From Terriglobia bacterium (GTDB lineage: Bacteria > Acidobacteriota > Terriglobia > 20CM-2-55-15): a DNA stretch of 64,000 bases. The notes beneath the pieces are model-generated. The model saw nothing but the letters and a program-made list of their open reading frames with translations. It searched no databases and was not told the DNA's origin. A program made the translations under genes and the position numbers. Positions 4,616-52,280 of the stretch are shown in pieces. Where the stretch lies: contig CBDCLE010000007.1 of the NCBI GenBank assembly GCA_965218585.1, forward strand, positions 1 through 64,000. The letters are read 5' to 3'. Position 1 is the stretch's first letter; each line of letters starts with the position of its first letter.

Positions 4616-5980
4616 ATGTTCTATTTTCTGTTCATATTGATTCTGGGCTACACGATCTTTACGTACATGTTTACATGGGCCTGCTACGTGGAGAACGTGC
4701 ACAGGGCCTGGAAGCTGGGCCTGGTCCAGGCCATCGCGATGACGATCGGCCTGGGAGCCTATGCGTGGGCATGGAACGCGGGTTTTCTTTCAAGCGGCAT
4801 AGCCGAATCTGCCCAGATGATCGTCTTCGTAGGCGGGAGCGTCTTTACTGTGGCGCTGTTCCTCCCCATCGGCCGCCGGCCCCACGTCCTGGCTGGAACG
4901 GCTGGGATGAAGCGGGGCGAAGGGGAGCAGTTCAATCAGAAAGACACGGCGTTCAACGTGGCCCATGTCGGGGGCTACGGGGCCGAGGCTGGAAGGCGCC
5001 GGTGGAATTTATTGAAGCGCGATCCGTTTGGTGGTCAATTCTGGGGAATGACCATGAGTTTGAGACCCCAGGTCGACGGGAAGATGAATCCGGAGAAAAA
5101 AGCGTATCGGGGCCTGAAGGAGGCTACGAAGGACATAAAAGCTCAGGTCAAGTACCTCGGCGCCGACATCGTCGGTATAACCACCGTAAAGCAGGACTTC
5201 GTCTACAGCGAAGCTTTTTCCTACGAGGAGTCCAAGGTGGAGACGGGACCGGCCGTAACCACTCCTATCGATCTGAAACACAAGTACATCATTGTGTTCG
5301 GCAAGGAAATGGATTTCCACAAGATCGACACGACCGTTACGCCTCGCAACGAAGACAGTGTGGGTGAAATCGGAAAAACGTACTATGAGCTTGCCCAGAT
5401 ATCCGTTACGTTGGCGGCCTATATCAGGCAGTTGGGATATCCGGCACAGGCGCACCACCTGCGTAACGAACAGATCGCGCTTGTGCCCCACGCCGTGGAC
5501 GCCGGCCTCGGTGAAGAGGGCAGGCACACCTACCTGATCACGCCCAAATTTGGGCCGCGTGTCCGGCTGGCAGCTGTGACGACAGACCTTGAGCTTCTCG
5601 AAGACAAGCCCGTGGACATTGGTGTCGAGCACTTCTGCGAAATCTGCCGCCTCTGTGAAACCAACTGTCCGCCGCAGGCGTTGTCCCCTGAGAAGAAGGT
5701 GATTCGCGGTTATCGAAAATGGCCCCAGGACATGGCGTCATGCTTCAAGTTCTGGGTGTCGGGGTTCAACACATGGTCCTGTACGCTGTGCCTGAAGGTC
5801 TGCCCGTGGAACAAGCCGAACAGCCTCGTTCATAAGGTGAGTTTTTACGCCGCCACCAAGTCATGGTTGTCCCGATGGATGCTCTATCTGATGACCGTCA
5901 TTTTCTGGGGACCGAAAACTCCGTGGCAGAGAATTGCTGAGAAAGGCGTGAAGATCGAATCGGCCATCAAGGTGAAGTAA
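4616..5980 (+). CDS. Reductive dehalogenase-like (RdhA/QueG superfamily) protein with N-terminal transmembrane helices
   Basis: Three hydrophobic N-terminal segments; YLGADIVGI, LAAYIRQLGYPAQAH, AVDAGLGE.GR, P.FGPRVRLAAVTTDL; Fe-S motifs CEICRLCETNCP and C..FW...SCTLCLKVCPWNKP. Confidence 0.8.
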   Translation: MFYFLFILILGYTIFTYMFTWACYVENVHRAWKLGLVQAIAMTIGLGAYAWAWNAGFLSSGIAESAQMIVFVGGSVFTVALFLPIGRRPHVLAGTAGMKRGEGEQFNQKDTAFNVAHVGGYGAEAGRRRWNLLKRDPFGGQFWGMTMSLRPQVDGKMNPEKKAYRGLKEATKDIKAQVKYLGADIVGITTVKQDFVYSEAFSYEESKVETGPAVTTPIDLKHKYIIVFGKEMDFHKIDTTVTPRNEDSVGEIGKTYYELAQISVTLAAYIRQLGYPAQAHHLRNEQIALVPHAVDAGLGEEGRHTYLITPKFGPRVRLAAVTTDLELLEDKPVDIGVEHFCEICRLCETNCPPQALSPEKKVIRGYRKWPQDMASCFKFWVSGFNTWSCTLCLKVCPWNKPNSLVHKVSFYAATKSWLSRWMLYLMTVIFWGPKTPWQRIAEKGVKIESAIKVK

Positions 5981-27613: not shown

Positions 27614-27686
27614 TGGAGATGATCGGGATCGAACCGACGACCTCCGCCTTGCAAGGGCGGCGCTCTCCCAACTGAGCTACATCCCC
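27614..27686 (-). tRNA. tRNA-Ala(TGC), CCA not encoded
   Basis: ggggatgtagctcagttgggagagcgccgcccttgcaagg...ggttcgatccc cloverleaf. Confidence 0.97.
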
Positions 27687-27766
27687 TGGACAACTCGCTG
27701 CCATAGCTTTCAAGGAGCTTTCAAGTCTCGGCGGTGATAGACCGCACCTACAGGCCCTGATTTTAA

Positions 27767-27840
<74 letters not shown>

Positions 27841-41191: not shown

Positions 41192-41260
41192 ATGAAACTC
41201 GGCCACTACGAAATTCTCTCAGCCCTCGGCAAGGGTGGAATGAGAGAAGTGTCGCGTACT
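41192..41260 (+). pseudogene. N-terminal remnant of a Ser/Thr protein kinase
   Basis: KLGHYEILSALGKGGMREV matches the kinase Gly-loop start (LG.GGMGEV); similarity ends immediately after. Confidence 0.6.
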
Positions 41261-41379
41261 TCGAGCCCTTGGGAGACACGCCATTTCGGGCGCTGCAGGC
41301 GGATAAGGCACTCAAGGACTAGCGGCCTGTTTCCGGCTACAAAATCTAACACCACACCGACACCTCAGGAGAACTAGCG

Positions 41380-41895
41380 ATGAAGTACCGTTTCCCAGCC
41401 CGCATGTTGCCCGGCACCATAGTCGTTTTATTACTCGCAGGCTGCAGCAGCTCGGGATCGAGTTTCGAATACATTCACCTGCCAGGCACGGAGCCGGCGG
41501 CTGGAGCGAATATGCCGTTTACGTCCGCCATTCGAGTGGCCTCAGGAAACATCGTGTTCCTGTCGGGGATTACGGCCGCGCCGGTTCCGCACAGTCATCC
41601 CCACATACCCTCGGAGTTCGATCACCTGGACTTCAGCGCTACAGCTCAAGCCGAGGCCGTTATGGAGGGGTTGCAGAGTACGATAGAGGCTGCGGGCGGC
41701 GAGCTCACCGACATCATTCAGGTGACACGTTTCACCGTCGACATCGACGCGAATCAGGATGCAATCAACGCCGTCATGAACCGCCACTGGGGCGAGGACC
41801 ATCGGCCCGCGAGCACTACCGTGGAGATCGTCCGGCTTGCGACCGATCCTCGCTTCGTCCTGGAGGTTGAGGCCGTCGCCGTCTTGTCCAAATGA
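41380..41895 (+). CDS. Rid (YjgF/YER057c/UK114) family lipoprotein
   Basis: Lipobox LLAGC; FLSG, PASTTVEI..L, LEVEAVA. Confidence 0.85.
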   Translation: MKYRFPARMLPGTIVVLLLAGCSSSGSSFEYIHLPGTEPAAGANMPFTSAIRVASGNIVFLSGITAAPVPHSHPHIPSEFDHLDFSATAQAEAVMEGLQSTIEAAGGELTDIIQVTRFTVDIDANQDAINAVMNRHWGEDHRPASTTVEIVRLATDPRFVLEVEAVAVLSK

Positions 41896-42016
41896 TGTCT
41901 AGCCCGGTTTGAACGCGAAGCCAGACCTGCCCGCGCCCTGCGGAATCTCAGCGCCGTTTCGATGGATTCGTTCCGGTCGAATCCGTGTAGATCAGCAGGC
42001 ACATCACGGTCTAGTC

Positions 42017-42685
42017 TTACTCTAACTCCGCAGCAGTCTTCTGGACTAATATGTCCTTGATTGCCGCCTCCCAGTCGCCGGGTAAGAATCCGAACGGCCC
42101 TTGTTCCGAGTGGTAGGTGATCCTGCCTTCCGCGTCCAGCAGAAACAGCCGATCGGGGAACGCTCGGTAAGCGTCTTCCACTTGGTTGCTCATATCATCA
42201 AGCGCCATAGGCATTTTCAAATTGAGCCGGAGAACGCACGTTGCTGCCTCCTCGGCACGGTCCTCGATCTCAATGTGTTGGTTGATAACGATGCCTTCTG
42301 CGGCATTGTTGCTGGAGCGGTAGCCGCCGACGCTGTCCTCGGGATGGGCTTCCTTGATGTATAGGCACAGGAACTGAACATCATCTCGGTAGGTTTCGAA
42401 AATCTCGTTCAGGCGCACGGCCTGCTCACGAAAAGGCGGTCACGTATATGATCCCATGAGGAGCGCCATCGGTTTTCCCCTGGACGAGGATAAGCTGAAC
42501 ATCTCCCCGGTCCGCGCGCCCTCCGGTGTCAGCATTTCCACCTCGAAGTCGGGCGCCGCCGTGCCGACCTTGGGCACACCTTTGTCTCGCTCCTTCTTGT
42601 AAGTTAGATACTTGGTAAATTCCTCTTGTGAAATGCCGAATTCGATCGCCAGGTCGCGTGCCATATTGTTATCGATTTTTGCCAT
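42017..42685 (-). CDS. Iodothyronine deiodinase-like thioredoxin-fold selenoprotein (UGA at 42440-42442 read as Sec)
   Basis: APDF..KP.AL.MGSYT-TGA-PPF..YIKEAHP..Y.AFPDRL..GPFGF in one frame; hairpin downstream of the UGA. Confidence 0.88.
42405..42431 (-). promoter_or_regulatory. Candidate bacterial SECIS element
   Basis: ucgugag-caggc-CGUGC-gccug-aacga hairpin; loop starts 20 nt after the UGA, with G at loop position 2. Confidence 0.65.
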
Positions 42686-42929
42686 CTCGGTTTCTCCCTG
42701 AACAAGGATACGTCGAATTTCAGTATTGGTCGAGTCGGCAACTCCCTCCGACCTCTCCCGCTCTTCGCGCTCTCCTCGACTCAATTAAACTCAATTTTTC
42801 ACGCCTTTCACCTCAGTATTGGAATGAGAAAGCCGACTGGTGACGTTCTCCCCGATCCGCTGCGCTACAATGTTCCACCAGGATCGATTTACGACACGGA
42901 AGACTCATCCGCCGATTGGAGGGCATGTC

Positions 42930-43517
42930 ATGTTACGAACGTCAGCCTTACTCTGTTCGCTGCCTCTATTGCTCGTTGCTTGCGGAGGTGGCGAACCGGC
43001 ATCGTCCGGGGTCGAGGCGGCAGCACCAGCCCAGGAAGTGAACGACGGTTGGAGGGAACCGAGTCCGGATGGACTGCCCACCACCACCGCAGGTTCGCCC
43101 GAAGAGGTCGGACGGTATATTGCGGTCGTCGCGCTTTGTAATGACTGCCACACGCCGAACTGGCTGCCAGCAGGTGACGTCCCCGAGGATCAATGGCTCA
43201 CAGGTAGCCCGGTCGGCTATGAGGGGCCCTGGGGTGTAACGTTCCCGTCGAATCTGCGCCTGTCCGCCCAGGACCGTACGGAGGACGAATGGGTCGAAAT
43301 GTTACAAACGCGGTCGGCCCGCGATCCGATGCCCTGGATCGCTGTCAATCAAATGTCCGAGAGTGATTCGCGGGCCTTCTATCGCTTCCTGCGCAGTCTG
43401 GGCCCGGCGGGCGAACGTATGCCGAACGCGATCATGGCCGGCCAGACGATCACGGAGCCCTATGTATCGCTTCGAGCCTGGGATCCGAACACCACGCTCC
43501 AGGCCGTACCAAACTAG
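42930..43517 (+). CDS. Monoheme c-type cytochrome lipoprotein
   Basis: Lipobox LLVAC; CNDCH; GPWG...PSNLR; PMPW distal Met. Confidence 0.85.
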   Translation: MLRTSALLCSLPLLLVACGGGEPASSGVEAAAPAQEVNDGWREPSPDGLPTTTAGSPEEVGRYIAVVALCNDCHTPNWLPAGDVPEDQWLTGSPVGYEGPWGVTFPSNLRLSAQDRTEDEWVEMLQTRSARDPMPWIAVNQMSESDSRAFYRFLRSLGPAGERMPNAIMAGQTITEPYVSLRAWDPNTTLQAVPN

Positions 43518-45321: not shown

Positions 45322-47392
45322 CTATCGGATTGAGAACGGTATCACGAAGTAGTCGGTATCCAGTCCGGCATCGACCGGTTCGAGCGCGCTGATTTCGAAC
45401 GGCGCGCCTATCCGGTTACCGGCAAGGTCTTCCAGAAACGAGAACACGAGGATCGAATGTTCCCCCCCGGCCCATTCTTCGTGAGGAAGAAAGGTCCACT
45501 CGGTCTCACCTTCGCTGATCTCAATCTCTCCTTCGATCGGATCACCCGATCGGGTTGTTACTTTTAGCGCACGCGACAGGAGGCCATGGTCCAGCGGCTC
45601 GGGAAACGACACTACCAGGCCTTCACGCGTACCCTTCCCGGGGAGCTCGGACAAATCCCAGCGCACCAGGTCGATCGGTTCCATGTCGGGTGGACCCACG
45701 CGGAACTCCTTCTGAAATCCCGCTATGAGCGGATTACCCTCCGCGTCGGGCCAGGCGCTGTCGACCAGGAGCGTATAACGTTGCGCCCTCGGCCACGGAT
45801 CGGCCCAGTTCATCGCTGAGCACCAGGCCCTGCTTGATGCGGCCGGGATCGAAAAAGACCGTGTAGCGTTGCCGCGCAGGATCCCACAATCCCGTTCCCA
45901 GAACATCGCCCAGGGGAAGGAATGCCGACCGGACTTCGTGGCCAGTCTCATCGAGTAGTTTGACGTAGGGTAGACCGCTGCTGGCGCGCATGGGTTCCGA
46001 GAAGTAGATGTATACCTTGAGCTGATTTTCGGGCAGGACGCTTGCGGTCGGATAGACACGCGCCACTCGCGCAGTGGGCGTTGTTGCCCGAGCCGGCAGA
46101 GCCACGACCGAAACCCCTGGCAAGCGCGTCTTCGCGTCGACATAAGGAGAGGGATCGAAAGTTACGACGTAGGCGCGCCCCGGGTCGAGAGGAAACATCG
46201 GGGTGAAGCGAACGAGGCCCTCTTCGATGGAGTAGGATCCGAGTACCGGCGGAATACCCGCGGTGGCCTCGAGCGTGTCTTGCTGGACGGCGATTCGTAG
46301 GACCTGTTCCCATTGCCCGCGATTCAGCTTCAAGCCGTCCAGAGCAGCGAGGGTTCCTGAATCGAGGCCTTGCACTTCGATCGAACTAGGGTGTGTTAAC
46401 ACTAACGTAGTGCCTCGACGATGAGTGCGAAGTGAAGGAAGGCGAGGAACATGACGTCGAGTTTATCGAAACGGGAGAAGATACGCCGAAAACCCTTGAG
46501 TCGGCGGAAGAGCCTCTCGACTTCGTTCCTGCGGCGGTAGAGCACGCGGTCGTATTCCCACGGCTCCAGGCGGTTGCGCTTGGGCGGCACGACGGGAATC
46601 CACCCAAAATCCAGAGCCAATTGGCGGGTCTGGTCGTCCTGGTAGGCACGGTCCATCAGCAGCGGCAGCGGCGCGGGCAACGGCCCCAGGCCGGCGAGCA
46701 GATCGCGGCCCTGCGGGGCGTCGTGCGCTTGGCCGGGCGAGAGCGCAAACGTTATCGCCGTTCGAGCATTCGCGGCAACCAGATGAATCTTGGTGGTCCA
46801 TCCACCGCGGGATTTGCCGATCGCTTGCGGACCGTTTTTTTTAACGCTCCCGTGCCGTCGGGATGCACCTTCACAATGGTCGAGTCCATCGAAACGGCTT
46901 CCACCCGGATGCGCACCAGTTGCTCGCGCTGGAGTTTTTCGAAGACGGCGTCGAGCACCCCGTTCTTGGACCAGCGGTTCATCCGGGTGTAGATGGTGTG
47001 CCAGTTGCCAAAGCGCTTGGGCAGACCGCGCCACTTGCAGCCCTGCTCAGCCACATACAAAATGGCGTTCAAGACCGTCAGGTTCGAAAGACTGACGTTG
47101 CCCCGCTGACGCGGCAGTTCCGGCTCGATGCGACAATACTGCTCCTGTGTGATCTCCATGCCTGATTATAAAACATTCATGCTCATTAGTGTTAACACGC
47201 TCTAGATTCGCCGTTTGGAGAAACTGCCAGACGAATCTCAGGAACGGGGCCCGCGATCGAACCCGAATCCGCAGTGCCGTCCCTCTGGCCACACCCCGAT
47301 GCCAGGACCGAAATCAGCAGGAGGCCAAGCCACACGCAAGTGTGGCGCGGGTCTTGGGAGACTCGCGCCACATTAAGCCAACTGAGGTACAT
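45322..47392 (-). pseudogene. Hypothetical lipoprotein interrupted by IS5 and carrying a +1 frameshift near 45785
   Basis: Lipobox ASGC; removing the IS joins NGES|SSIEVQ in frame; frames switch at GRSVAEG/QRYTLLVD. Confidence 0.75.
46389..47202 (-). mobile_element. IS5-family (IS427-like) element with a two-ORF frameshifted transposase (47159-46752 and to 46402)
   Basis: IRs gggtgtgttaacacta / tagtgttaacacgctc; TA duplicated in a cTAg target; A8 slippery run; GKSRGG.TTKIH, DRAY, RNEVER.F..LK.FRRI. Confidence 0.92.
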
Positions 47393-51719: not shown

Positions 51720-52280
51720 ATGAACATTGTACAGGTTTTCGAGCGGTTCCCCACCCAACAATCCTGCATCAACCATCTTGAGAAAGCCCGCTGGGGCGGA
51801 AAGCCCCGCTGCCCATACTGCGGGTCCGGGAATACGGCCCGGTCGCAGCACCGCCACCGCTGCTACACCTGCAAGACTTCGTTCAGTGTAACGGTCGGCA
51901 CGATCTTCCACCATACGCACCTTCCCCTTCAGAAGTGGTTCCTGGCCGTTACGCTGATGCTGAACGCGAAGAAGGGACTCTCCGCACTCCAACTCTCCCG
52001 CGATATCGAAGCCAACAAGAACACGGCTTGGCGGATCTCAATGCAGATTCGCAAAGCCATGAGGCAATCCGCCCAGCGTAGCCTTCTGACCGGCATTGTC
52101 GAGATGGATGAAACCTACATCGGCGGAAAGCCGAGGAAGGGCGGGCCACCCTCCAAGCCGGGACGCGGCACGAAGAAAACTCCTGTTGTCGGGGCAGCCG
52201 AGCGCGGCGGGCGAGTCACGGCGAAAGTGACGAAGAAATCCTGGTTTCGACTGAAATCAAGCGTGTTTCTATTCCGGTAA
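51720..52280 (+). pseudogene. IS1595 transposase, N-terminal part; the C-terminal piece lies inverted at about 54012-54125
   Basis: CPYCG, C..C..SFSVTVGTIF, L.KWF, EMDETYIGG; minus-strand HLQKYVDEFCYRYN near 54100. Confidence 0.85.

Follow-up and report, generated by a model that had tools for sequence, protein, structure and literature searches.

The sequence from position 42685 to 42017 of the window (the whole 64,000-nt stretch of DNA analysed here) is with high probability one intact gene of the deiodinase family (PF00837), in which the catalytic residue is a selenocysteine (Sec) encoded by UGA and read by means of a hairpin in the coding sequence (Table 1). Two ORFs on the minus strand, 42440..42784 and 42017..42418, lie in the same frame, and the initial annotation correctly joined them into one gene: the 222-aa reading from the ATG contains a single TGA, which falls inside the motif GSYT-U-PPFREQAVRLN, and YIKEAHP is found 27 residues downstream of this motif. 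The start codon is backed by the closest relatives (L065-L068), which could be aligned from residue 1. The "GTG start" (42418-42416) of the 133-aa C-terminal ORF is the GUG in the loop of the hairpin, and this piece is a wrong gene call. Hydropathy analysis of the 222-aa protein (19-residue window, maximum 0.62) revealed no transmembrane segment and no N-terminal anchor of the DIO1-3 type, and the protein is predicted to be a soluble, cytoplasmic short form. The promoter and terminator scan around the gene gave nothing useful, with no sigma-70-like promoter detected upstream in the promoter scan, and the base composition of the region was unremarkable. In an RNA library, one 158-nt contig was identical to positions 42016-42173; this is a minimal hint of transcription and may instead reflect DNA carry-over.

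Table 1. Coordinates of the predicted deiodinase-like selenoprotein gene and its signals in the window.
Feature	Position	Strand	Description
Predicted deiodinase-like selenoprotein CDS	42685..42017	minus	222 aa, complete; ATG 42685-42683, TAA 42019-42017
UGA predicted to be read as Sec	42440..42442	minus	codon 82, motif G-S-Y-T-U-P-P-F; aligned with the Sec-to-Cys position of mouse Dio3/Dio2
Shine-Dalgarno-like GGGAG	42694..42698	minus	8 nt upstream of the ATG
Putative SECIS core	42410..42424	minus	5-bp helix CAGGC (42424-42420)/GCCUG (42414-42410), loop CGUGC (42419-42415); covariation
Possible lower helix	42403..42433	minus	UUUCGU (42433-42428)/ACGAGA (42408-42403); weakly supported, MFE fold

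Membership of the deiodinase family, as proposed, was supported by both sequence and fold comparisons. The protein matched Pfam PF00837 (T4_deiodinase) with 89.7 bits against a cut-off of 27 (E 2.3e-25), residues 38-202 aligning with model positions 73-226 of 237, and it also scored above the cut-off of the AhpC-TSA model (PF00578; 31.3 bits, cut-off 26), a match overlain by the far stronger deiodinase one. For the NCBIfam model NF038285 ("deiodinase family protein"), the score of 155.5 bits was under the cut-off of 250; the match was confined to model positions 176-340 of 347, such that the catalytic domain was matched but the N-terminal half of the model is missing here. This model was passed by a secreted EF-hand form from a relative (L035, 253.9 bits). 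When solved structures were searched with the single sequence, mouse Dio3 (E 1.5e-18) and Dio2 (E 7.2e-12) were the best matches, the next best being at 0.0066. With a profile of 37 relatives, Dio3 scored 113.9 bits (E 6.2e-32) and Dio2 98.7 bits (E 2.7e-27), with the next family, ResA, at 29.6 bits, ~84 bits below the deiodinases. An AlphaFold model built on the alignment of the same 37 relatives (pLDDT 93.7, pTM 0.89) gave Dio2 (9h48, E 1.7e-12, TM 0.80 on the target) and Dio3 (4tr3, E 4.0e-12) as the top Foldseek matches, with E-values four orders of magnitude better than those of the ResA-like and peroxiredoxin chains that came next (~1e-8 to 1e-7).

The alignments with the crystallised mouse enzymes (PDB 4TR3 and 9H48) place U82 on the position at which Sec was changed to Cys, with GSYT-U-PPF opposite GSCT-C-PPF in Dio3 and GSAT-C-PPF in Dio2, and the shared site can be written S-x-T-U-P-P-F. 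The alignments with Dio3 also span the deiodinase-specific insertion, consisting of YIKEAHP (Y-I-x-E-A-H in common with the mouse proteins) and a loop of ~28 residues, and they pair R179 with Arg275 and H137 with His219 of Dio3. In contrast to these likenesses, identity to the mouse proteins is only 26-28%, and the bacterial protein has no N-terminal membrane anchor, its model instead showing two extra amphipathic helices at the N-terminus. The putative SECIS element is likewise of the bacterial kind and lies within the coding region, whereas the elements of animal deiodinases lie in the 3´ UTR. To our knowledge, thyroid hormones are not expected in bacteria. AhpC/TSA peroxiredoxins and ResA/TlpA oxidoreductases share the same fold and carry their reactive residue in the same place, where helix 1 begins, but they are without the deiodinase E-A-H insertion, and the present protein has no CxxC.

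Since the TGA sits precisely where a strong family match has its catalytic residue, its location is far beyond chance, and Sec decoding of this codon (42442-42440) is very likely on the evidence of the sequence comparisons. A check on homologues, named in the initial annotation, found the site to alternate between Cys and Sec. Among metagenome loci fetched with a profile of close relatives, TGA was present at the site in 80/80 (76 recovered by the first motif pattern and four more that carry U-T-P-F or U-P-P-Y). Within 61 related genomes there were 30 matches at E<=1.9e-18, 29 of them with exactly one TGA; the sole exception among these strong matches, in genome G046, has Cys. Of 28 loci read individually, 27 carried the TGA within the motif. 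Of 301 genomes sampled from the phylum, 33 had PF00837 matches, and 33 of the 35 matches contained one TGA; leaving aside three genomes flagged as unpublished, the counts were 30/298 genomes and 30/32 matches. No PF00837 match was detected in 14 control genomes.

Protein collections gave a different picture, to be read with the knowledge that the protein library is biased against Sec forms. In a word-indexed collection, 93 of 103 matches were pieces of 122-150 aa that cover only the part after the TGA, and the nine that span the site have Cys in eight cases and Trp in one (P0003), the latter taken to be a TGA probably read as Trp by the gene caller. An exhaustive protein search returned 3534 cluster representatives at E<=1e-10, and among the best 149 new representatives of these the residue at the site was Cys in 132, Ser in seven, Trp in two, and Ala and Leu in one each, with the residue missing in six. 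The text of the GOS survey likewise gives both forms, with 22 Sec and 21 Cys deiodinase-like sequences (PMC2398784). In a tree of 82 sequences, a quick tree being our only guide to the placement of the two forms, Cys forms appear in at least two and at most five separate places among the Sec forms. The argument that selenium is chemically required by the family is weak: although Sec is the prevailing form in this phylum and subfamily, most entries of the protein library, biased as it is, have Cys.

In E. coli fdhF-type SECIS elements, a hairpin with a G in its apical loop lies directly 3´ of the UGA within the coding sequence. Both the placement of the hairpin and the apical-loop G recur in the gene described here; the helix supported here, however, is only 5 bp long, begins 15 nt downstream of the UGA and is a predicted SelB site. 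The initial annotation had put a CAGGC/GCCUG stem with a CGUGC loop 20 nt after the UGA. Stem and loop are present as described, but it is only the loop that begins at 20 nt, the stem beginning at 15 nt. Folding of the single sequence gave -15.5 kcal/mol (z -1.09), and 30 of 200 shuffled sequences were as stable; by itself, the hairpin is thermodynamically no better than chance, and its significance therefore comes from the comparison with relatives.

When 89 sequences were aligned without gaps from the TGA onwards, 96.5% of cells in the helix columns (19-23/29-33) were paired and three of the five pairs showed compensatory changes, such that the SECIS-like character first ascribed to the hairpin now has covariation of its core helix behind it. 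Pair 19-33, for example, was CG in 34 sequences, GC in 25, AU in nine, GU in four, UG in two and another combination in six. The covariation score was 0.247, compared with 0.140 for shuffled alignments (none of 500 reached the observed value) and no more than 0.127 with the partners slid; in coding terms, the first base of a Gln/Glu/Lys codon varies together with the silent third position of a Leu codon that follows four codons later. Loop position 2 (G25) was G in 89/89 sequences. RNAalifold predicted exactly the 5-bp core helix and no lower helix; across relatives, 73.3% of the cells of the lower helix were paired, without convincing covariation. A second subfamily (U-G-P-F) has its own 7-bp hairpin at an equal distance from the UGA, with 99.1% of cells paired and two compensatory pairs. 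When the own genome was searched with a SECIS covariance model, only the two sites used in training were recovered (71 and 54 bits; next 19.6 bits), and this search adds nothing to the case. An Rfam scan of 41800-42900 at E<=10 returned only a chance snoRNA match.

The genome (4.55 Mb, 95.5% complete) holds the Sec machinery that the initial annotation proposed to look for. selA (484 bits), selB (376 bits) and selD (356 bits) were all above their cut-offs, a tRNA-Sec was found (73.2 bits; anticodon TCA by ARAGORN), and selD itself has an in-frame TGA at the canonical active-site position. selA, however, is apparently frameshifted: in this gene (L001, contig 2, about 238,246-239,591), the frame that encodes residues 1 to ~415 is left at about 238,390-238,420, and the ~48 conserved residues at the C-terminus are read in another. 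The change of frame resembles a 1-nt indel and could be either an assembly error or a real defect of the Sec pathway. In our proposed scheme, the hairpin would recruit SelB carrying Sec-tRNA(Sec), with the result that the UGA would be decoded as Sec and not as a stop.

Two readings of the TGA would do away with Sec altogether. It could be a true stop, leaving a pseudogene or two small genes (81-114 aa and 133 aa), as the two ORFs from standard gene calling and the apparent frameshift in selA would suggest. Against this, the break falls in the middle of the thioredoxin fold and exactly on the catalytic residue, both halves are conserved in the relatives that keep the TGA (80/80 and 29/30), the hairpin downstream covaries, and the "GTG start" of the second piece has no separate support; we consider a true stop very improbable. 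Alternatively, the TGA could be a sequencing error, or the host could use another genetic code and read TGA as Trp or Gly, for which the single database homologue with W at the site can be cited. The check for a misread codon was again informative, the TGA being kept in independent assemblies: contigs assembled from runs of three studies, one of which may be the source of this DNA and one of which includes a ~90% identical strain, cover the codon, and none of the listed differences falls on it, nine differences lying outside the list (the uncovered gene parts in runs X4 and X8 are uninformative). Moreover, TGA is the stop codon of four of 16 family-supported genes in the window and occurs internally in none of the other 15, and the genome has tRNA-Sec, selB and a Sec-containing selD. 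An error or a recoded TGA is thus scarcely credible, and we retain the reading of the TGA as a Sec codon.

Residues G78, S79, T81, U82, Y109, E112, A113, H114 and R179 were invariant in the 37 close relatives, and among the best 149 representatives Y109 was kept in 148, E112 in 148, H114 in 145 and R179 in 143. Proton relay and substrate-clamp residues of the Dio enzymes are named in PMC11592359 and PMC9141512, and S79, T81, Y109, E112, H114, R179 and H137 match residues named there; all of these except H137 are near-invariant in the 149 representatives. The distal relay His is present here as H137 but is Pro in 118 of the 149 representatives. The proximal, recycling Cys of DIO1 and DIO3 corresponds to Tyr80, unlike in those enzymes; Dio2, with Ala at this position, also has a residue other than Cys there. 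Cys150, which at least 90% of close relatives and 108 of the 149 representatives retain, is a candidate resolving thiol as judged from conservation, and it lies at a different place from the distal Cys of animal deiodinases.

We infer that catalysis follows a selenol redox cycle like that of peroxiredoxins or deiodinases. In such a cycle, the Sec82 selenolate would attack an electrophile, assisted by the conserved Ser79, Thr81, Tyr109, Glu112, His114 and Arg179, and would be oxidised to Se-OH or a Se-halide; the selenolate would then be regenerated by a thiol, be it that of the nearly invariant Cys150 or one from outside the protein. A hydroperoxide or similar redox substrate is a realistic candidate for the electrophile, albeit short of a probable one. 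An iodinated or brominated phenolic compound, which would make the reaction a true dehalogenation, is possible but rather unlikely, and it is also unlikely, though conceivable, that the electrophile is something else.

The case for a peroxiredoxin-like peroxidase, or another thiol-dependent redox enzyme sharing ancestry with the deiodinases, in which Sec82 would be peroxidatic and Cys150 resolving, draws on several observations. The AhpC-TSA model scored above its cut-off too, peroxiredoxin and ResA folds were the next structural matches after the deiodinases, the Ser at -3 and the invariant Arg suit a site of the peroxiredoxin type, and Cys150 is widely kept. In the wider family there are periplasmic-type fusions with TPR of the CcmH type. 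Thiol-redox genes were also present near the gene in relatives (two for GST and one each for glutaredoxin, AhpC and glutathione synthetase), but these are just five of 100 flanking ORFs and come without a control. Weighing further against a peroxidase are the near-invariant Y-x-x-E-A-H insertion, which is not a peroxiredoxin feature, and the margin of ~84 bits by which the deiodinase matches exceed the next family. On balance, we regard this reading as plausible without being probable.

The insertion and the closeness to deiodinases speak instead for the kind of enzyme considered in the initial annotation, a Se-dependent reductive dehalogenase of natural iodo- or bromophenolics, which by analogy with the animal enzymes would form a halogen bond to Se, pass through a Se-halide intermediate and be recycled by a thiol. 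The Y-x-x-E-A-H insertion, S-x-T-U and the Arg are found together in 143-148 of the 149 representatives and in each of the 37 close relatives; among solved structures, no others come nearly as close as the deiodinases; and the Sec form is predominant both in the phylum (33/35) and among close relatives (80/80). Three contig names indicate marine metagenomes and one RNA-library contig comes from a sponge metagenome; according to the text of a review, PBDEs are debrominated by animal deiodinases (PMC7144113). However, no neighbour, fusion or co-occurrence tied to halogen or aromatic metabolism was found, the Cys in 132 of the 149 representatives implies that the family in general can do without selenium, neither the proximal Cys nor, as a conserved residue, the distal His of the animal enzymes is found, and the discoverers of the family expected a different, redox function (text of PMC1088965). 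Dehalogenation is, in our assessment, a tentative reading that is less likely to be true than false. The broader proposal, that these soluble bacterial proteins are true Se-dependent aryl dehalogenases of marine iodinated and brominated phenolics and that dehalogenation is the ancestral chemistry of the deiodinase family, is similarly doubtful. If true, reductive dehalogenation would be older than thyroid hormone signalling, and aerobic bacteria would have a cobalamin-free route to it.

The family to which this mis-annotated gene belongs has already been described, and the gene adds a new member to it. Zhang, Fomenko & Gladyshev (2005, Genome Biol 6:R37, PMC1088965) reported Sec and Cys forms of bacterial deiodinase-like proteins (Pfam00837) from the Sargasso Sea, found bacterial SECIS elements in their genes and proposed a redox role distinct from the deiodination of thyroid hormones, as the article text states. 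The family is listed again, in the text of each source, in the GOS survey (PMC2398784) and in reviews of 2022 and 2026 (PMC9312934, PMC13188914), the latter of which notes that nearly all such proteins are known from bioinformatics alone. Compared by text descriptions, the present gene is like the "deiodinase-like protein" family of 2005 in its PF00837 domain, its Sec and Cys forms, a SECIS with a small loop and a G just after the UGA, and its occurrence in marine metagenomes. It differs in that this protein and all 89 relatives have U-P-P-F (or U-T-P-F, U-P-P-Y), with no Cys at +3, whereas the family motif is given as UxxC in the text of the two reviews. Full-text literature searches, which covered running text, found no experimental study or assay of a bacterial deiodinase-like protein.

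"Hidden", as the gene was initially called, is accurate for annotation, given that what public sets contain is mostly the 122-150 aa piece downstream of the TGA, but not for the biology, the family having been published in 2005. The present gene, both paralogues in its genome and the majority of relatives are stored as 122-150 aa fragments or as "hypothetical protein", and this fragmentary annotation conceals a large Sec-using family (3534 representatives at E<=1e-10). The original function of the family bears on the origin of thyroid-hormone metabolism. The 222-aa form, soluble, free of an anchor and with a confident model, is convenient for testing whether dehalogenation or peroxide/thiol redox chemistry was the original job.

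The gene is solitary; one neighbour, RidA-like, is convergent with it and the other, a lipoprotein gene, is divergent. The latter (42840-43517, plus strand) encodes a predicted lipoprotein of 225 aa with one CXXCH haem-binding motif and has no Pfam or NCBIfam match. No conserved partner was detected among the flanking ORFs of relatives (100 of 110 scanned, 10 near-duplicates being omitted), the commonest families among the 100 being PhyH (four), Asn synthase (four) and EamA (three). The initial annotation had suggested that the gene complements an RdhA-like gene in the window, and this did not hold up. The RdhA-like gene (4616-5980, plus strand), with a 4Fe-4S dicluster domain and a TIGR02486 score of 156.2 bits, just under the cut-off of 160.35, is 36 kb away; among the 61 relatives, six have RdhA-like genes, and deiodinase-like genes are present in four of those six and in 20 of the other 55, with no real association beyond what kinship explains.

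Forty-five long forms of the wider, mostly Cys-type family carry additional domains or extensions: EF-hands in 27, TPR (including the CcmH type) in nine, tandem catalytic domains in three and nothing recognisable in six, with no catabolic-enzyme fusion among the 45. EF-hand and TPR architectures (including P0148-P0259) are not mentioned in the portions of the family literature available to us. In related genomes, L032, L035 and L039 are secreted deiodinase-like selenoproteins with EF-hand arrays and RGG-rich linkers. The own genome has two paralogues: L050 (contig 2, 181454-181978), a short form with a TGA that is 46% identical and adjoins a Mutator-family transposase gene, and L145 (contig 3, 63374-63859), also with a TGA, which has an N-terminal extension and resembles the architecture of lipoprotein, DUF4440-like and deiodinase domains seen in relatives L041, L045 and L051. 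Four metagenome contigs (L101, L106, L109 and L119) have two copies of the Sec gene each, every copy with its own TGA and hairpin.

At the DNA level, 42017-42685 had no match in the four other genomes of the genus. The neighbouring RidA-like gene matched genomes of the same genus at 90-93%, with different surroundings in G003, and the nearest relatives of the deiodinase-like protein are metagenome sequences at 65% identity. Transposase genes are located at 46402-47034 and 51720-52280 of the window. The locus may have been gained recently or lie in a rearranged region. Elsewhere in the window, a 61-codon ORF (41192-41377, plus strand) resembles a Ser/Thr protein kinase at its beginning, with a glycine-rich loop, but is cut short after that. 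Across all five genomes of the genus, dozens of places match its first ~125 nt with 71-93% identity; they probably represent the conserved 5´ ends of numerous kinase paralogues, in which case the ORF would be a gene remnant. At 27614-27840 on the minus strand, a tRNA-Ala(TGC) gene lies beside one for tRNA-Ile(GAT), the usual spacer pair of rRNA operons.
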